Shown in pieces: positions 3,849 through 38,355 of a stretch of DNA of 64,000 bases (position 1 is the first letter of the stretch; every line of letters begins with the position of its first letter). The DNA is from a virus: the IMG/VR virus record IMGVR_UViG_3300027747_002460. One strand, 5' to 3'. The position numbers and the translations under genes are program-made. The notes under the pieces were generated by a model that was not told the DNA's origin, searched no databases, and was given only the letters and a program-made list of their open reading frames with translations.

Positions 3849-4490
3849 TCAACGTTCCATGAGTTGGTCCACGAAGTTCTGCAGCAGCTTGTGATGCCGG
3901 TTCCTGTGCCAGTATGGTTTCATGTATGTGGGTTTGGTATACCAATGAGCTGTGCTCTCTGGATGGCAACCGATCAAGCCAACGCGGCCTTGATAACCAG
4001 CCATGGCATCTCCGTTGCTGTAGGTGCTAACAGCATCAAAATCGCCATCACCATGCAGGGCACAGCCATCATAGAAATACATGCGCTCAGCCTCACCATT
4101 CCAAGTCACGGGCATGGCTTTGGCATGAGGTCTGCGAGTGCAGGTTTCTGGGCGAGTGATGTACTGCGTGGCCTTGACACCATCCAAGAGGTCCAAGTAA
4201 TGATGGGCTGCCCAGTATGCGCCCATGCAGATTCCCATGTAGCGCCCACCGTCTGTAATGAACTGATGCAGACGCTTCTTGTGCATGCCCAGCAGCCGCT
4301 TGTAGTTCTGGGCGTCCCCTATACCACCACCCACGGCCACGATGTCCACGTCATCGAAGAAATCATCTTCGAGGCTGTGCTTGCCAAACAGCTTGAACCT
4401 GTAGTGTGGTTCTAACGCACCTATGATACCGTTGGCACTGTCCGTGCTACAGTAGGGATGAGCTATGAAGATCGCTATCTTGCCGCGCAT
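3849..4490 (-). CDS. BPL_N / class I glutamine amidotransferase-like domain protein
   Basis: VAVGGG and GGRYMGICMGAYWA nucleophile elbow, GCHPE. Confidence 0.7.
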   Translation of the reverse strand: MRGKIAIFIAHPYCSTDSANGIIGALEPHYRFKLFGKHSLEDDFFDDVDIVAVGGGIGDAQNYKRLLGMHKKRLHQFITDGGRYMGICMGAYWAAHHYLDLLDGVKATQYITRPETCTRRPHAKAMPVTWNGEAERMYFYDGCALHGDGDFDAVSTYSNGDAMAGYQGRVGLIGCHPESTAHWYTKPTYMKPYWHRNRHHKLLQNFVDQLMER

Positions 4491-5839: not shown

Positions 5840-6544
5840 TCACTTGCGATCACCCATCAGTTGCAGCAGATTAATGAAGATGTTGATAAAGTCCATGTAG
5901 AGGTTCAGTGCCCCCATGATTCCAGCTTTATCTCGATCATCACCTTCAACAGCATAGTAGGTTTCCTTGATCTGCTGCATGTCGTATGCAGTGAATCCCA
6001 CGAAGATAAGCACACCGATGGCACTGCAGGCCATCTGCAGAGCACTGCTCTGTAGGAATAGGTTTACCAAGCCCGCGATGATCAGACCAAACAGGCCCAT
6101 CATCAGGAACGATCCCATGTTGCTGAGATCACGGCGTGTGGTGTATCCCCATAGCGCAGTGCTACCAAAAGTAGCAGCGCTGATGAAGAACACCTGTGCG
6201 ATGCTACCCAGCTTGAATATCAAGAATATAGGACTGAGGCTTATGCCCATCAAACCAGCATATACATATAACAACGTCCTGGCAGTGCTCGGAGAAAGGC
6301 TGTTGATCATGAATCCCAGGAAGATTGCCATACCAACTGGAGCCAACATAAAGAACCATTTTTGCGGTCCACCAAAGAATGACACCATCAGTTCTGGGCT
6401 GTTGCCTAACATGAATGCAGTGAGTCCGCTGATTGCCAGCGCTATTGTCATGTAATTGAATACCTGTAACAGATAGGCTCGCAGTCCTAGATCATAATCG
6501 GCATGCGTAGGTGATTGTGATTGTGCTGCTGTCCACGGATCCAT
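5840..6544 (-). CDS. yccA: Bax inhibitor-1/YccA family membrane protein
   Basis: YDLGLRAYLLQVFNYM, AYDMQQIK, GALNLYMDFINIFINLLQL; about 7 hydrophobic segments. Confidence 0.9.
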   Translation of the reverse strand: MDPWTAAQSQSPTHADYDLGLRAYLLQVFNYMTIALAISGLTAFMLGNSPELMVSFFGGPQKWFFMLAPVGMAIFLGFMINSLSPSTARTLLYVYAGLMGISLSPIFLIFKLGSIAQVFFISAATFGSTALWGYTTRRDLSNMGSFLMMGLFGLIIAGLVNLFLQSSALQMACSAIGVLIFVGFTAYDMQQIKETYYAVEGDDRDKAGIMGALNLYMDFINIFINLLQLMGDRK

Positions 6545-6734: not shown

Positions 6735-7214
6735 TTATCTCTGTCCTCCCTGTAGATGTTTGATCACATAGCAGTTTGGACCCCATTCGCCCTGCCAGCG
6801 CCAACCGCTGGTCTGCCGGAAACCGTGTGCTAGATAGCTGCCCAGCGCATCATGCCGTGGGAAGCTCCAAATGCGATCGCAGCCTCGAGCCACCGCATTC
6901 TGTTCTGCTGCATCAAACAGCAGCCTGCTCAATCCCTGACCTCTGTGTTCGGGGTGCACCCAGATGCCTCGGCAGCGATAGAGACCGGGTTTGGTGATGA
7001 AGCCGCTGATCACCCCAACTGTGTCACTGTTTCTCAAGCAGACAAAGTCCACAGGGCTGGTGTGTATGTCGCTGTCGTAGCCGCCCAGATACCGCATGGC
7101 GCTGTGCGTGCGCAGCTGGCTGCGCCTGTCAGGCCACAGTTCCGTCTCCCAGATGTGTTTGATCTCATCCCAGCTACAGGGACCCACAGAGATCATTGTC
7201 CTGCAGATCTCCAT
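6735..7214 (-). CDS. GNAT family acetyltransferase
   Basis: RGIWVHPEHRGQGLSRLL acetyl-CoA motif A; YLAHGF. Confidence 0.85.
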   Translation of the reverse strand: MEICRTMISVGPCSWDEIKHIWETELWPDRRSQLRTHSAMRYLGGYDSDIHTSPVDFVCLRNSDTVGVISGFITKPGLYRCRGIWVHPEHRGQGLSRLLFDAAEQNAVARGCDRIWSFPRHDALGSYLAHGFRQTSGWRWQGEWGPNCYVIKHLQGGQR

Positions 7215-7918
7215 GGATAGTTGCCGTTGTGCTTGCCATAGGTCACAGCGTTGCCGTTGTCAAAAAACTCTCTGTTCACGCTGTTGGCATTGCCGTCCAA
7301 GCGGTAGTTTAGCGTGTAGAGGCCGCTGGTTCCCCAGCTGGTAAAGTGTTGGCTGATGGCACCCAGGAAGCGTCGGTCACCGCCCCAGCCCCAGTGCCAA
7401 GCAGCACACACCTGGGCAAACACCTCACGCTTGATGCAGTAGCAGCTGGTGTCAACCAAGTGATGCTGATCGCTCACATACACAGGCCAGCGTCCCAGGC
7501 TCTCGCAGTCATCCAAGCAGAGATAACTACCATCCTTGTCCACGATCTTGCGCAGGCTGTGTGCCCACTGCCAACCCTTGCGTTCTATCACAGCAATCAA
7601 GCTATCAACGTGGCTGGGATCCATGAAGTTGTCTTGGTCCAGCAGCAGCACATAGTCTGTGTTTACCAAGTGTCCCACGGCAGCATAGATGCGATGCCCG
7701 TAGAATCCGCCGCCGCCTGTGTTTTCTGGCAGCTGCATGACCTTGATTCGCCCATCTATGAACCTGCTTAGCACTGCTTGGCAGGCATCTTCAAACTGCG
7801 GGCCGTCTATGACTACCCACACTGAGGTATCAGGATGCGTCTGGTTTATGGCTGACCGTATGGCCTGCTCCAGCTCTGGTGCGCCCGTGGCGGCTATGAC
7901 TATGGTTGCTGTGCTCAT
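7193..7918 (-). CDS. Glycosyltransferase family 2
   Basis: AIRSAINQT, VVIDG, YVLLLDQDN (DxD). Confidence 0.85.
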   Translation of the reverse strand: MSTATIVIAATGAPELEQAIRSAINQTHPDTSVWVVIDGPQFEDACQAVLSRFIDGRIKVMQLPENTGGGGFYGHRIYAAVGHLVNTDYVLLLDQDNFMDPSHVDSLIAVIERKGWQWAHSLRKIVDKDGSYLCLDDCESLGRWPVYVSDQHHLVDTSCYCIKREVFAQVCAAWHWGWGGDRRFLGAISQHFTSWGTSGLYTLNYRLDGNANSVNREFFDNGNAVTYGKHNGNYPWRSAGQ

Positions 7919-21516: not shown

Positions 21517-22401
21517 CTAGGTGTTGAGCTTGAACTTCACGTAGTCTACTATAGCACCGGCTACGTTTATGTCAACGTATTTCTCAAAGCCCTCGAAACC
21601 TGGCGCAGAATTGGCTTCGCAGACCCTAAAACCCTCATGGTCAAACAGCAGATCTATGCCAGCTATGTCCAGGCCCAGGGCCTTGGCTGTCTCGCGGCAC
21701 AGCAGGTCCATCTCTTCGGTCACTGGATAGCTTTCGCCAGTGCCGCCGCCAGTGATGTTGGCCCTGAAATCTCCCTCTGGACCTGTGCGTTTCATGGCTC
21801 CTATGACCTTGCCACCTATGACCCACACTCGCAGATCGCTGCCAGGCTTGGCATCGATGAACTCCTGCACGATCATGGTCTTCTTCACGCTGAGATTTTC
21901 AACCAAGTCCATGAGGTCTTCAAACAGCTGCTGTGTCTGGCAGAGATGCACGCCCTTGCCATGCGAACCCTGCACTACCTTGACCACGCAAGGGAAACCG
22001 ATCTCCTGTGCCACCACCTTGCTGCTGACTGGGAACTTGACCAGCATGGTCTTGGGCGTGGGTATGTTGGCCTGTGCCAGTATCTGGTGTGCCAGCAGCT
22101 TGTCCTTGACGTTGTTGATGCTGGTGCTGCTGTTGATGTTGGGCACAGAGAATTTCTCCAGCTGACGCATCACAGCGCTGCTGAAGTAGTTGGTGCCTGC
22201 GCCTGTGCGTGTGAGCACCAGCTTGGGCATGGTTATGCTGGTGCCTTGGTAGCGTATGCTCTTGTTCTTGCTTCTGTTAACTATTATGTCAAAGTCGTCA
22301 GGGTGCGTCAGCTGTGCAGCTATGCTGTTAGCTGCGAAGGTCTCTAACAGCCGCGTGTTCTCGTAGCTGTCTCTGTGTTGGCTCAGTATCCAGACGCTCA
22401 T
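21517..22401 (-). CDS. RimK-family ATP-grasp alpha-L-glutamate ligase
   Basis: DKLLAHQIL, VVKVVQGSHGKGV, VQEFI, DLRVWVIG, FRANITGGG, GIDLL, CEANSAPGF. Confidence 0.9.
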   Translation of the reverse strand: MSVWILSQHRDSYENTRLLETFAANSIAAQLTHPDDFDIIVNRSKNKSIRYQGTSITMPKLVLTRTGAGTNYFSSAVMRQLEKFSVPNINSSTSINNVKDKLLAHQILAQANIPTPKTMLVKFPVSSKVVAQEIGFPCVVKVVQGSHGKGVHLCQTQQLFEDLMDLVENLSVKKTMIVQEFIDAKPGSDLRVWVIGGKVIGAMKRTGPEGDFRANITGGGTGESYPVTEEMDLLCRETAKALGLDIAGIDLLFDHEGFRVCEANSAPGFEGFEKYVDINVAGAIVDYVKFKLNT

Positions 22402-23191: not shown

Positions 23192-24028
23192 CTAGATCTC
23201 TAGCACCTTGCTGGGGTCAAACCCGCTCTGCTCACCCGGATAACCCAGAGGATTGCACACCACTCTGGTATCACCTATCTGGTAGTCAAAGACATGATGC
23301 GTGTGACCGTGCGTCCACAACACGATCTGCGGATGGTCCAAGATGAACTCATCCAAGTTGCTGGTGAACGCACCATTCAAGGTCCTGTGGCGCGGCTGCT
23401 GATAGGTATAGTGTATGCTAGAATGGCTGGGGCAGTGATGCCCCACGACCACGGTTGGCCGCTTGTCCAAGCCCAGCTGCACCCGCAGCCATTCCATATC
23501 GCTCTGATGCTTGGCATAGGTGGTTTGGGGACGCAGTTTGTGGTATACATCAACACCATCGCGGTTCTGCCGCTCGGTGATGTGATGATAGTCGTTCATG
23601 AGATCAGTCATGGCCAACATGTCCAGGCGATCACCACCGTTGAAGTCTGTCCACAGGCTCATGCCCAGGAACACGGTATCATCAATCACCACCCTGTCCT
23701 GGTCACACACACGGATGTTGGGATAGTGGGCCAGTTCTTCGCGCAGGGTGGGCATGGTGCGATCCCAGCGCCCGCTGTAGTGCTCATGATTGCCAGCCAC
23801 GTAGATCACATGTGCCCAGTGATCGTTCACGTGAGCAAAGAAGTCACGGTAGCGCTGGACCTTGTGACCATTCTCAGCGTTGTTTGGCAGATCGCTCCTC
23901 GGATGACGATAGATATGCTGTGCCACGCAGATGTCACCACCCAGTATCAGCACGTCGCTGCCCATGTTGGCCAGCACAGGGGGATCCCTGTGCTCCATGT
24001 GTAGGTCTGATATGACCTGTATCTTCAC
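23192..24028 (-). CDS. Calcineurin-like metallophosphoesterase
   Basis: SDLH, GGD, GNHEHY, GHH, HGHTH. Confidence 0.9.
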   Translation of the reverse strand: MKIQVISDLHMEHRDPPVLANMGSDVLILGGDICVAQHIYRHPRSDLPNNAENGHKVQRYRDFFAHVNDHWAHVIYVAGNHEHYSGRWDRTMPTLREELAHYPNIRVCDQDRVVIDDTVFLGMSLWTDFNGGDRLDMLAMTDLMNDYHHITERQNRDGVDVYHKLRPQTTYAKHQSDMEWLRVQLGLDKRPTVVVGHHCPSHSSIHYTYQQPRHRTLNGAFTSNLDEFILDHPQIVLWTHGHTHHVFDYQIGDTRVVCNPLGYPGEQSGFDPSKVLEI

Positions 24029-28334: not shown

Positions 28335-28649
28335 TCATCCACCCCAGAGATCATCGTGATGAGCATGTCTGCCATCTTTGCTGCGATACATGTCACGATG
28401 ATTTGGCTTGTTAACTGAATCAAAGGTCCAACGAGTCACAAATGTTCCTAGTGTCAACAGAGCAATATGCCCGAGAATCCAATAAGGAAACAGCAGCATC
28501 CAGCCCACCATGGCACAGAAGATGAAGCTCCACATCATGGCCAACACGGTCATGATCTGGTAACGAACCAGCGCCGGTAATGCCATCAAGGGATTCTTGT
28601 CAGGATCCATCAGTGGGTCCCAGATACGTGTGCGTATGTGCCGGATCAT
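28335..28649 (-). CDS. Two-TM membrane protein, paralogue B
   Basis: LMDPDKNPL...RYQIMTVLAMMWSFIFCAMVGWMLLFPYW; shares an identical 32-nt stretch with paralogue A. Confidence 0.7.
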   Translation of the reverse strand: MIRHIRTRIWDPLMDPDKNPLMALPALVRYQIMTVLAMMWSFIFCAMVGWMLLFPYWILGHIALLTLGTFVTRWTFDSVNKPNHRDMYRSKDGRHAHHDDLWGG

Positions 28650-29077
28650 GCCGTAGCTCCCTGTGTTGCTTGTTCATGCGCTATGGTCATGATGCGGTTG
28701 ACCATGCTGCGCACTCCGTTAGCCCGTTGGCTGCTGATGTGGCTCTGCAGATCTAACCTAGTGAATAATTCGCTCACGTCTCTGGTCAAGATGTCCGTGG
28801 GCGCATGATCGTCATAGTAGGCCAGCACTAGTGCTATCAAACCTCTAACAATGTGAGCATCGCTGTCACCTCTGAATCTCAGTCTGCTAGTCTTATCATC
28901 CAGCTCACTGACCATCCACACCTGGCTGGCGCAGCCTAGCACGCGATTCTCATCCGTGCGCAGGTGTGGTTCAAGCTGACCCAGGTTCTTGCCCAGATCA
29001 ATGATGTAGCGATAGCGATCTTCCCACTGCTCCAACAGCCTGAAGGTTTCTTCAACTTCTGTGAGGTCCAAGATCAT
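28646..29077 (-). CDS. sufE: SufE family Fe-S sulfur-acceptor protein
   Basis: WEDRYRYIIDLGK, VLGCASQVW, GDSDAHIVRGL, SSQRANG. Confidence 0.9.
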   Translation of the reverse strand: MILDLTEVEETFRLLEQWEDRYRYIIDLGKNLGQLEPHLRTDENRVLGCASQVWMVSELDDKTSRLRFRGDSDAHIVRGLIALVLAYYDDHAPTDILTRDVSELFTRLDLQSHISSQRANGVRSMVNRIMTIAHEQATQGATA

Positions 29078-29159
29078 CAAGATCCCCAATAGTTTTCTGG
29101 CAACCAATACCAGTCATCGCTGGGCATATCTTGGTCGCCTTGGACATTGCTGTGCTTGA

Positions 29160-34520: not shown

Positions 34521-34985
34521 CTAAACCAACAGCGGATTTGCCTTGAACTGTGCATAGATTTCCTCGTAGGTCTTATCAAATATGGAAATCTTGAGCAGTA
34601 TACGTTCTTCTGGCCCATTGGTCACGCTGTGGCGTCGTTGCGTGTTAAGCAATGCTGACCGGTATAGATAATCTATGCCTTCAATGGTGATTGGCGCAGC
34701 ATTTTCACTGATTATGAAATTCACTGAGCATTCCGTGCCATTGTCAGTGTGCTCTTTCAGACTGGCAAATGGCTTTAACCAATAGAATCTTGGCCTGGCA
34801 TTGATTCCCAGATCTGCGATGATCTTTTCGATATACTCGCTGGTATGCTTTTTTATCAACCAATCAGGCGTGCCCAATCCGGGTCTCGGATCAACATACA
34901 CAGATGCTGATGATTTAATCTCAGCCGCTTGCTGCAGTAGTATTTCCTTGTCTACTGTGTATTTCAGATGCAGAATTGGTTCCAT
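34521..34985 (-). CDS. Cupin/2OG-Fe(II) oxygenase-like protein
   Basis: EHTD...RHSV facial-triad pattern. Confidence 0.6.
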   Translation of the reverse strand: MEPILHLKYTVDKEILLQQAAEIKSSASVYVDPRPGLGTPDWLIKKHTSEYIEKIIADLGINARPRFYWLKPFASLKEHTDNGTECSVNFIISENAAPITIEGIDYLYRSALLNTQRRHSVTNGPEERILLKISIFDKTYEEIYAQFKANPLLV

Positions 34986-35041: not shown

Positions 35042-36058
35042 TCACAAGAATTCATCCAGTAGATGATCCACATCTTCGTGCTTGACCAGATTCCGTTTGA
35101 ACTGCTGCCAAGCTGCGGGCCAATTATAGCGAGCCTGTGCTATCTCAGCACAGACGTTGCGATCCAAGGTCAGCGCAGATTGTATCGCAGCGCCGATGTC
35201 TCGGTCCATGGCTCCAGTCTGGGGCAATATCACGTCTACGGGACCCTGCACTGGATAGGCTGCCACCGGTGTGCCCAGCACTTGGCTCTCTATCATCACC
35301 AATCCAAACGTGTCAGATTGGCTGGTGAACACCATGCAGTCAGCCTTGGAATATTCGTTGGCCAGATCCGCGCCGCGCAGCATGCCTAGGAACTGCACAC
35401 CTGGGTAGCGAGATCTCAGTGCTGGCAGATGTGGGCCATCGCCTACCATGACTAGTTCATAGACAGTGCTGTCCAGCTCACAGAAAGCTTCTAGGTTCTT
35501 TTCCTTGCTGATGCGTCCAACGCTGAGCAACCTTGGTTTGTCATTGAATGTGTGGCTAACGTAGGGCGTTAGGTTGCTGAGATCCACACCTCTGCCAAAC
35601 AGCACTACTTCGGCCTTGATGCTCTGTGCGATCAGCTCGGCTCTGATGCTGGGTGTTGGTACCATGACCTTACCATGCTGATGGAACCAGCGCAGGAATC
35701 TCCAAGTCACTGTCTCTGGTATGTGGAACAGTCGGTTGAAATACTGTGCCCACTGCGTGTGATAGGCCGTGGTCAGCGCCAAGCGTCGAAAGCTGATGCG
35801 TGCCATCAGTCCCAGTGGACCTTCTGTGGCAATATGCAGGTGATCAGGTGCGAAACTGCGCACCATCTTGCGCACGCCCCAGGGCCAACACAGCTGCACC
35901 TCTGGATACCCAGGAGCTGGCCGATTTGGAAACAGTCCCGGATGTATGACCAAGACTTCCCAGCCATCAGCCTTGGCCTCGCGCACCAGATTGGTCAGCG
36001 TGGTCACCACGCCGTTGATCTGAGGTCGCCATGCGTCTGTGACTATGCAGAGCTTCAA
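35042..36058 (-). CDS. agt: GT4 glycosyltransferase, Agt-like (monoglucosyl/glucuronosyl diacylglycerol synthase)
   Basis: IVTDAWRPQINGVV, HIATEGPLG, YHT, VGRISKEKN, DTFGLVMIES. Confidence 0.75.
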   Translation of the reverse strand: MKLCIVTDAWRPQINGVVTTLTNLVREAKADGWEVLVIHPGLFPNRPAPGYPEVQLCWPWGVRKMVRSFAPDHLHIATEGPLGLMARISFRRLALTTAYHTQWAQYFNRLFHIPETVTWRFLRWFHQHGKVMVPTPSIRAELIAQSIKAEVVLFGRGVDLSNLTPYVSHTFNDKPRLLSVGRISKEKNLEAFCELDSTVYELVMVGDGPHLPALRSRYPGVQFLGMLRGADLANEYSKADCMVFTSQSDTFGLVMIESQVLGTPVAAYPVQGPVDVILPQTGAMDRDIGAAIQSALTLDRNVCAEIAQARYNWPAAWQQFKRNLVKHEDVDHLLDEFL

Positions 36059-36228
36059 CGCAGCCTCTCGCAGCTGCCCGTGATCTTGAATCGATCAAAC
36101 TTCAGCTGATAGGTCATGCTGTTCAGTGCTGTCCTGCAGGCTTCTTCCGTGCGGAATTCCAAGCGTATGCGCCCTGGCACGTCACTGGGGTCACTCACGT
36201 GTATCGCCAACAGAACCAGGACCCACAT
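36055..36228 (-). CDS. Small membrane-anchored protein, 57 aa (absent from ORF track)
   Basis: GGAGA RBS then MWVLVLLAIHVSDPSDVPGRIRLEF...SCERLR; stop overlaps the TTG of the GT4 gene. Confidence 0.55.
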   Translation of the reverse strand: MWVLVLLAIHVSDPSDVPGRIRLEFRTEEACRTALNSMTYQLKFDRFKITGSCERLR

Positions 36229-36961
36229 CCCGTTCTCCCCATCGCACTATCTCCCAGCGTCCATCCTCATGCTCAACCAATGCGGTGCAGCTTTCCACCC
36301 AGTCTCCGCAGTTCATGTAGGCAATACCATCCACGTCTCGGATGTTGGCATGATGTATGTGCCCACAGATGATGCCATCGCAGCCATGTGTGCGAGCGTA
36401 GCCGCTGAGATTCTCTTCGTAGTCCCCTATGAAGTTCACAGCCTGCTTGACCTTGTACTTGGCCCAAGCTGACAGGCTCCAAGGTCTCAGTCCCAGCATG
36501 CGCCTTGAGCCACTTACTACCACGTTGAGGCCTATGAGCGCATCATAGGCCCAGCTGCCAAGATGTGCTAGCCACTTGGCATGCTTGATCACCACGTCGA
36601 ACTGATCACCATGCATGACCTTGTAGCGCTTGCCATTGGCACCTCTGTACACGCAGGTATCAACCAAGCGTATGTTGCCAAAGTCGTGATCGCCAAAGCT
36701 GCGCAGGAACTCGTCGTGGTTGCCAGGCAGATATGTGACGTTAGTGCCCTTGCGTGCCTGCCTCAGTATCTTCTGTATGACGTCGTTGTGCACCTGCGGC
36801 CACATGAAGCTCTTGCTCATGGCCCATCCGTCAATGATGTCACCCACTAGAAACAGGTTGTCAGTCTCGAATGTCTTGAAGAAATCTAACAGCGCAGCAG
36901 CGTTGCTCATCTTGGTGCCCAGGTGAACGTCACTGATCCAGACGCTCCTGTACTCCATCAT
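36191..36961 (-). CDS. plcP: PlcP-like phospholipase C (metallophosphoesterase often annotated as UDP-2,3-diacylglucosamine diphosphatase)
   Basis: SDVHLG, LVGDIIDGW, WPQVHNDVIQKILRQARKG, PGNHDE, HGDQFD, AKYKVKQAVNFI, CGHIHH, NCGDWVESCTA; adjacent to an agt-like gene. Confidence 0.8.
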   Translation of the reverse strand: MMEYRSVWISDVHLGTKMSNAAALLDFFKTFETDNLFLVGDIIDGWAMSKSFMWPQVHNDVIQKILRQARKGTNVTYLPGNHDEFLRSFGDHDFGNIRLVDTCVYRGANGKRYKVMHGDQFDVVIKHAKWLAHLGSWAYDALIGLNVVVSGSRRMLGLRPWSLSAWAKYKVKQAVNFIGDYEENLSGYARTHGCDGIICGHIHHANIRDVDGIAYMNCGDWVESCTALVEHEDGRWEIVRWGERDVGPGSVGDTRE

Positions 36962-37986: not shown

Positions 37987-38322
37987 GAGCTATTTACACA
38001 CTGCCCCACTTGAGCAGATCAAACATCGTGGTGTATTCCCAGTGATCAAAGGATGGCGCAAACTCACGGCCCGGCCCAGCATGATGGTCTATCACGCGCC
38101 TTCGCAGTATGCGCTTCAGCCACACGATCTTGCCCAGCTTGATCGGACAGTCTGTGCTGAACGGTGCTTGATCATGCCAATACAACATCTGCACTGGTCG
38201 CCACGCAAACCATGATTCCCATCGCTGGCGTTCTGGCCTGATATAGAATCTATGACCGTAGAGGTTATCTAAATCGTAGCGACTGTAGCAACTTGTCATG
38301 CAGCAGCATAGTGCAGACATGG

Positions 38323-38355
38323 CTAGGGCAGCAATCAATCTGGTTGCTGCCCTAG
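38323..38355. terminator. 12-bp inverted repeat, putative terminator hairpin
   Basis: CTAGGGCAGCAA...TTGCTGCCCTAG just after the 38374 gene. Confidence 0.5.

Follow-up and report, generated by a model that had tools for sequence, protein, structure and literature searches.

A candidate plcP-agt membrane lipid remodelling module with a phage-only small gene in DNA of a T4-like freshwater phage

Phosphorus often limits bacteria and phages in lakes and in the surface ocean, and the known phage answers to this limitation are phosphate uptake genes (pstS, phoA); those of cyanomyophages were reportedly found by Zeng and Chisholm in 2012 to be controlled through the host PhoBR. In bacteria, the PlcP-Agt pathway has been studied through SMc00171 of Sinorhizobium meliloti, Atu1649 and Atu2297 of Agrobacterium tumefaciens, Phaeobacter MED193, PlcP and the glycosyltransferase GTcp of SAR11 strain HTCC7211, and PlcP and Agt1/2 of Pseudomonas aeruginosa (PMC4796936, PMC3972451, PMC8231724, PMC9804370). 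Here we describe a gene set of this kind in a 64,000-nucleotide (nt) stretch of viral DNA, IMG/VR record IMGVR_UViG_3300027747_002460, which we call the window. Both enzymes and the pathway are known from bacteria. The module shares with the bacterial pathway both enzyme families, the plcP-agt order, the metal motifs, the Agt catalytic dyad and the motifs for UDP (uridine diphosphate)-sugar. It differs in being encoded by a lytic-type T4-like phage and in having proteins that fall into deep viral clades of their own, a phage-only gene of 57 amino acids (aa) between the two enzymes, and a plcP gene coupled to an unrelated phage gene, with no Pho box found in the window. Our literature search found no paper that describes phage plcP or combines plcP with auxiliary metabolic genes (AMGs). 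The pelagimyophage, Mosig and S-SRM01 papers make no mention of a plcP gene, and PlcP papers treat phages only as predators affected by host lipids (PMC9938194, PMC9804370).

The features of the locus are as follows.

36191-36961, minus strand: plcP, 256 aa, ATG start; PlcP-family metallophosphoesterase, predicted to be of the intracellular phospholipase C type
36055-36228, minus strand: 57-aa gene, ATG start; small conserved phage gene accompanying viral plcP
35042-36058, minus strand: agt, 338 aa, TTG start; family 4 glycosyltransferase (GT4) of the Agt/GTcp clade, predicted diacylglycerol glucosyl/glucuronosyl transferase
36056-36248, minus strand: insertion of about 178 nt relative to the closest relatives, from DNA alignment; most of the 57-aa gene plus nine extra plcP codons
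36958-37986, minus strand: upstream 342-aa gene, coupled translationally to plcP (ATGA overlap)
37991-37996, minus strand: TAAATA box, 4 nt before the ATG of the 342-aa gene; candidate promoter for plcP, the 57-aa gene and agt as one unit

In the list of open reading frames (ORFs) of the window, plcP, the 57-aa gene and agt all lie on the minus strand and overlap one another. The 342-aa ORF and plcP share the ATGA at 36958-36961, plcP and the 57-aa ORF overlap by 38 nt, and the stop codon of the 57-aa ORF overlaps the TTG start of agt (TTGA). A preliminary description, made from the letters alone, had presented the three as a single overlapping minus-strand unit; its coordinates match the ORF list exactly, and every peptide string that it quoted (KVKQAVNFI, GDWVESCTA and others) was found in the translations. 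Pfam detects Metallophos in the 256-aa protein and, in the 338-aa protein, Glyco_transf_4 at residues 14-161 and Glycos_transf_1 at 171-278, which fits the GT-B architecture of a GT4 of about 334 aa. Since the 1920-nt module stretch was found identical in a 113-kb contig (L192), and at least 20 contigs, drawn from several independent samples, show the five-gene order of the window, the arrangement did not arise in assembly.

The reading best supported by these sequences, and in our judgement a probable one, is that the phage carries a PlcP-Agt lipid renovation module with which it would mine the phosphorus of the host membrane. In this scheme, whose substrates, products, phosphate use, expression timing and small-protein role we infer, PlcP would remove the phosphate-containing head group from host phosphatidylethanolamine, phosphatidylcholine or phosphatidylglycerol, yielding diacylglycerol and a phosphoalcohol. 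Host phosphatases would then act on the phosphoalcohol, and the phosphate set free would go into phage nucleotides and DNA, while Agt, with UDP-glucose or UDP-glucuronate, would convert the diacylglycerol into phosphorus-free glycolipids that keep the membrane a working bilayer until lysis. The 57-aa protein would be a phage-specific accessory that works together with PlcP, such as its regulator or partner. Like the pstS and phoA genes of cyanomyophages and the pstS gene of the Pelagibacter phage Mosig, such a module would be host-derived, carried by T4-like phages and able to relieve a phosphorus shortage. Those genes serve to import or free external phosphate, whereas the module of the window would recycle the membrane phosphorus of the cell and rebuild the membrane. 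If true, this would be a different strategy, in which membrane phosphorus is recycled, the lipids are replaced and the cell survives until lysis. At two phosphorus atoms per base pair, a genome of 395-493 kb, the unverified size of the contigs most closely related to the window, would contain about 0.8-1.0 million phosphorus atoms. Only a few additional phage genomes could be paid for from the phospholipids of a small cell, and for that reason the membrane phospholipid pool would be of a relevant size for the phage.

The preliminary description had proposed that the phage mines host phosphate, and the genomic surroundings of plcP in related phages support this. In Mosig, plcP (annotated as LpxH) lies divergent from pstS. 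In loci L184-L188, a set consisting of plcP, a small gene and a family 2 glycosyltransferase (GT2) adjoins PstS and an OprO/P-type porin (Porin_O_P), so that plcP is a direct neighbour of pstS there as it is in Mosig. Three of these loci (L184, L185 and L187) have a direct repeat (TGTAAT/CGTAAT or TGTAAC/TGTCAT, 11-nt spacing) followed by TAAATA before both pstS and plcP, an arrangement resembling a Pho box fused to a promoter of the phage. Because pstS and the porin adjoin plcP in relatives, and because the Pho-box-like repeat is shared by pstS and plcP, the context of the module in these relatives supports a tie to phosphate.

Several observations weigh against the phosphorus-mining proposal. 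A search of the window for a Pho box of the E. coli-type consensus with up to three mismatches gave 10 matches where 13 are expected by chance, none of them near the unit, although the PhoB motif of the host may differ from this consensus. By tblastn with PstS and the phosphate porin of the related modules, no counterpart was found within the 64-kb window. Expression of plcP here may follow the phage programme and not the phosphate status of the host, because plcP is coupled to the gene upstream, which is unrelated and is preceded by a TAAATA box. Among the diacylglycerol-pocket residues of GTcp (His104, Thr162, Arg163, Trp320), three of four are conserved, and Thr162 is replaced by Gly in the clade of the window; the same position is Ser in A. 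tumefaciens and Pro in Bradyrhizobium. Finally, the characterized proteins SMc00171, MED193_17359, PB7211_983/960 and Atu1649/2297 were represented in all our comparisons by genomes of the same species or the same family.

The TAAATA boxes deserve a fuller account. In the window plcP has no intergenic region of its own, and the box ahead of the 342-aa gene is the sole candidate signal; in relatives TAAATA stands directly upstream of plcP. On the coding strand, eight of the nine boxes in the window are followed, after 4-21 nt, by an ATG that starts an ORF of 56 aa or more, four of them after only 4-5 nt.

62488, 57966, 44195, 37996, 28085, 10961, 8525 and 3838, minus strand: TAAATA boxes, the eight near an ATG

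This spacing suggests late-type promoters of mRNAs that would be leaderless or have a very short leader. The exact T4 late promoter, TATAAATA, was considered and set aside: it occurs only once in the window, far from the module, and the shorter TAAATA box was the more informative of the two. A perfect 15-bp stem with a 3-nt loop and no T run lies at 38323-38355, directly after the stop codon of a 140-aa gene; it may stabilise the RNA, or may mark the edge of the plcP unit as a terminator.

If the benefit of the module were a changed envelope and not phosphorus, the chemistry would be the same, and the glycolipids would alter receptors or membrane proteins, block superinfection, or tune membrane stability or the timing of lysis. 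We judge this unlikely, but it has points in its favour: membrane lipid make-up shifts phage adsorption about fourfold in Ruegeria pomeroyi (PMC9938194), deletion of plcP alters membrane-protein levels in P. aeruginosa (PMC9804370), the window lacks the Pho box and pstS, and it contains other envelope-related genes, including a GT2 at 7193-7918. Set against these are the other phage lineages, in which the module stands beside PstS and a phosphate-selective porin and shares with pstS the Pho-box-like element, pointing to phosphate stress, and the location of the enzymes, since PlcP and Agt act at the inner membrane and most receptors are found in the outer one. Both benefits are mutually compatible.

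A quite different identity for the pair would make the phosphoesterase a true LpxH (UDP-2,3-diacylglucosamine diphosphatase) and the GT4 a transferase of lipopolysaccharide (LPS) or another glycan, so that together they modify lipid A or LPS, which is what automatic annotation and AMG surveys take for granted. This identity owes its appeal to database names, since homologues are called LpxH in the sources, and to the Protein Data Bank (PDB), where the nearest solved structures, by sequence and by fold, are LpxH. The sequence already contradicts it, and we consider it very improbable. The window protein scored 35.9 bits with the LpxH model TIGR01854 (cut-off 190) and 41.3 bits with NF003743 (cut-off 134). 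Betaproteobacterial genomes that hold both types calibrate these values: their true LpxH scored 192-195 bits with TIGR01854, while PlcP-type paralogues at another locus scored about 27-34 bits. The same model had no match in Agrobacterium or Rhizobium genomes, and it is among Alphaproteobacteria that almost all of the best cellular relatives are found, at 51-61% identity over the full length; they include A. tumefaciens, Rhizobium, Bradyrhizobium and Pelagibacteraceae. For these alphaproteobacterial groups there are published studies or assignments of PlcP (PMC4796936, PMC3972451). The motif GNHD, present in the window protein, occurred in 95 of 97 PlcP-type proteins, against GNRD in all three LpxH. 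A 2026 paper on B. cenocepacia PlcP has nothing on motifs. The identity of the second enzyme, which falls in the Agt clade with the Asp256 signature described below, also speaks against lipid A or LPS modification.

Phylogeny separated the two families in the same way. With LpxH as the root, trees of 100 and 183 rows placed the window protein within a clade with the PlcP of A. tumefaciens, Rhizobium and Pelagibacteraceae, and E. coli and betaproteobacterial LpxH formed a very long separate branch with 100% support in the Shimodaira-Hasegawa-like approximate likelihood ratio test (SH-aLRT). Within the PlcP family, the 183-row tree placed it in an all-viral clade of 50 rows. The metal motifs are intact (D11/H13, GD41xxD44, GNHD81-83, H117GD, GH201xH203), and D11, H13, G40, D41, D44, G80, N81, H82, D83, H117, G200, H201 and H203 are invariant in both PlcP alignments. 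The preliminary description had noticed a PlcP-type signature, and the grouping with alphaproteobacterial PlcP agrees with it. The ratio of nonsynonymous to synonymous substitution rates (dN/dS) against relatives was 0.06, which indicates purifying selection. An AlphaFold2 model (predicted local distance difference test, pLDDT, 83) has a metallophosphoesterase core with a helical cap or insertion at residues 119-191. In Foldseek, LpxH accounted for all of the 25 best PDB matches of the model (E-values 5e-12 to 7e-10); the copy of the PDB searched contained no PlcP structure. LpxH (PDB 5B49, 5K8K) thus shares with the window protein the calcineurin-like core and an inserted helical cap, which binds lipid in LpxH, and is its top structural match, with an end-to-end alignment at 29 bits; it differs in the family cut-offs, in GNRD against GNHD and in its separate clade. 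Because of the scores below the LpxH cut-offs, the GNHD motif and the position in the tree, it is close to certain that the 256-aa protein belongs to the PlcP family and not to LpxH; phospholipase C activity is predicted.

This assignment bears on how viral genes have been catalogued. AMG surveys file viral lpxH (K03269) under LPS biosynthesis (PMC10653327, PMC9611531), a practice that also speaks for the LpxH identity; one reports it as most common at surface depths of oligotrophic water (PMC10653327), and the other reports it in viral transcripts of Lake Baikal (PMC9611531). These entries probably belong to the same gene family as plcP of the window, but where they are filed as LPS biosynthesis, the evidence given here points to removal of phospholipid head groups. 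It is probable that the survey entries are PlcP and that a function in the phosphorus cycle has been misread as one in envelope glycans.

The partner enzyme could be assigned with similar firmness. In 56 of 80 bacterial loci, Pelagibacteraceae included, plcP is immediately followed by a GT4 to which that of the window is 36-46% identical along its whole length; Sebastian et al. 2016 (PMC4796936) describe this plcP-agt order as the 'type 2' operon. The A. tumefaciens genome gave one strong GT4 match, at 236 bits with the next at 28 bits, and its locus is separate from plcP, which fits the published Agt (Atu2297), unlinked to plcP in that species (PMC3972451). In the tree the window protein lay within the Agt clade, with A. 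tumefaciens Agt and the SAR11 enzyme, and another GT4 of the same genome was about eight substitutions per site away. The residues whose mutation abolishes the activity of SAR11 GTcp are listed in PMC8231724, and we mapped them by alignment to Pelagibacteraceae homologues with fitting numbering. Thirteen of the 14 mutagenesis-tested residues are conserved in the window GT4. They include the His104-Asp256 dyad, in which Asp replaces the usual Glu of GT4 enzymes as a signature of the clade, and which is kept in the window and in all aligned relatives; nine further residues (G16, G82, G85, R190, K195, T257, F258, G259 and E264) are all conserved as well. The UDP-sugar motifs of GTcp, GRVAxEKN and FPSxTDTFG, read GRISKEKN and FTSQSDTFG in the window, and dN/dS was 0.12, again indicating purifying selection. 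The preliminary description had taken this GT4 for an Agt, and the phylogeny, together with the retained catalytic and substrate residues, agrees: membership of the 338-aa protein in the Agt/GTcp clade is close to certain, and it is predicted to be a diacylglycerol glycosyltransferase.

We then consider the gene between the two enzymes. In the closest relatives (L009, L010 and L011, with 93% PlcP identity) the 57-aa gene is absent and plcP and agt overlap directly. DNA alignment with these relatives placed the 178-nt insertion of the window exactly at the plcP/agt junction, and nothing else interrupts the collinearity with L011 over about 20 kb of this neighbourhood. Homologues 37-50% identical to the 57-aa protein lie directly 3' of plcP in 8 of 80 IMG/VR loci, and each of seven additional contigs examined had one in this position. 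A profile search extended the family to 217 clusters, mostly of 56-57 aa; no member occurs in the 80 bacterial plcP loci, Mosig or S-SRM01, and Pfam, NCBIfam and PHROGs had no match to the protein. Mosig_00121, a 72-aa gene overlapping the end of Mosig plcP, was tried as a member and rejected, as it is not in the family. Nine residues are invariant in the family, two of them Cys (H10, P14, D16, P18, C31, K43, F44, F47, C53), and dN/dS is about 0.18, with synonymous sites near saturation. Because of the homologues directly 3' of plcP and the family of 217 clusters, the 57-aa ORF is a real gene, phage-only and directly 3' of viral plcP wherever it was located.

The preliminary description had called its product a membrane peptide, which the evidence does not support. 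Only about 10 residues at the N-terminus are hydrophobic, and AlphaFold2 modelled them as a beta strand within a compact beta-beta-alpha-beta fold (mean pLDDT 90), so that a small soluble protein is predicted. A Foldseek search of the model against the PDB returned nothing with an E-value below 0.6, which leaves the fold uninformative about function. Tentatively, the protein may be a PlcP partner invented by phages, which switches on, restrains or localises the phospholipase so that the membrane loses phosphorus without early collapse; the set of PlcP, small protein and exchangeable GT4 or GT2 would then be a virus-specific lipid-remodelling system and not a copied host operon. If this were so, part of the glycolipid signal that marks phosphorus-starved lake and ocean bacteria would come from infected cells. 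A phage-only small protein would also offer a handle on the control of PlcP activity.

The module is widespread among viruses and its parts do not travel as one. PlcP homologues are encoded on at least 558 IMG/VR contigs, and an Agt-like GT4 follows plcP directly in 27 of the 72 best contigs that have at least 1 kb of downstream sequence. The 183-row PlcP tree contains three changes between viral and bacterial labels, where about 60 are expected by shuffling. Because of these few changes and the 50-row all-viral clade, viral PlcP is an old lineage maintained by viruses and not a recent capture. The presence of the 57-aa gene requires at least seven changes on the same tree, which means frequent gain, loss or exchange of the gene. 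Its downstream neighbour is a GT4 in L143, L165 and L189, as in the window, and a GT2 in L181-L188; tblastn with the GT2 of the related modules found no counterpart in the window. Compared with the window, PlcP of L006/L104 is 75% identical and its Agt-like GT4 only 41%, and the values for L003 are 74% and 67%. Because the identities of the two proteins diverge in this way, the glycosyltransferase partner has been exchanged independently of plcP. In L006/L104, plcP adjoins a curli csgF/csgG cluster and a CHASE2 cyclase. The window itself encodes, at 3849-4490 on the minus strand, a BPL_N-domain protein 54% identical to the product of a gene that adjoins the module of plcP, small gene and GT2 in L184-L188; here it lies 32 kb from plcP.

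The window as a whole is DNA of a large T4-like freshwater phage. PHROGs identified both T4-type topoisomerase II subunits, Rnl1, a clamp-loader-like ATPase and a baseplate hub/lysozyme, ARAGORN found three tRNAs and one tmRNA, and base composition is even along the window. The closest relatives are lake-metagenome contigs of 395-493 kb (ENA GROS21-1, L010-L012), which are collinear with the window over about 20 kb around the module at 76-91% nucleotide identity, with at least 80% across long segments. The sizes of these contigs, and of a 480-kb IMG/VR contig (L137), may be those of true genomes or of assembly concatemers; to our knowledge, 395-493 kb is about twice the size of the largest T4-like phages. 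That plcP and agt are cellular DNA, brought in by host contamination, a prophage-flanking island or a chimeric assembly, and so not phage genes, is hardly credible: both genes are bacterial in origin and their nearest cellular relatives are Alphaproteobacteria, but they sit among phage genes and are coupled translationally to them, at least 20 contigs of several samples repeat their order, as do syntenic contigs of up to 493 kb, composition does not change over the window, and the viral PlcPs form deep clades of their own with 51-61% identity to any cellular protein. Contamination and chimeric assembly are excluded for practical purposes, because of the phage genes, the even composition, the collinear lake contigs and the recurring gene order. 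The preliminary description had already argued from the flanks that the segment is not host DNA; the flanks are indeed those of a phage, and syntenic phage contigs have the same gene pair.

Conserved viral genes stand on either side of the module. On the upstream side, the 342-aa gene is kept in L010-L012 and L191-L194 and is missing upstream of plcP in L003 and L006; it is not part of the module in other lineages. On the other side lies a 154-aa gene (34521-34985, minus strand). Pfam and PDB sequence searches gave no match for either protein. Searches of a protein atlas gave weak leads, for the 342-aa protein to the nucleotidyltransferase family NTP_transf_2 and for the 154-aa protein to 2-oxoglutarate (2OG) oxygenase or Asp/Asn hydroxylase cupins; genes of the 2OG oxygenase and Asp/Asn hydroxylase type adjoin plcP in Mosig. 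In comparison with L011, synonymous divergence is 0.13 in the 154-aa gene of the window and 1.0 in plcP, and this contrast points to mosaic recombination.

Elsewhere on the minus strand of the window lie other host-like genes, at 880-2553, 5840-6544, 21517-22401 and 28646-29107. They encode a nitroreductase, a CMD/AhpD-like protein and an AhpC peroxiredoxin in a row, a Bax1-I/YccA-type protein, a RimK ligase and SufE. A second calcineurin-like phosphoesterase, of 278 aa and not of the PlcP type, is encoded at 23192-24028 on the same strand.

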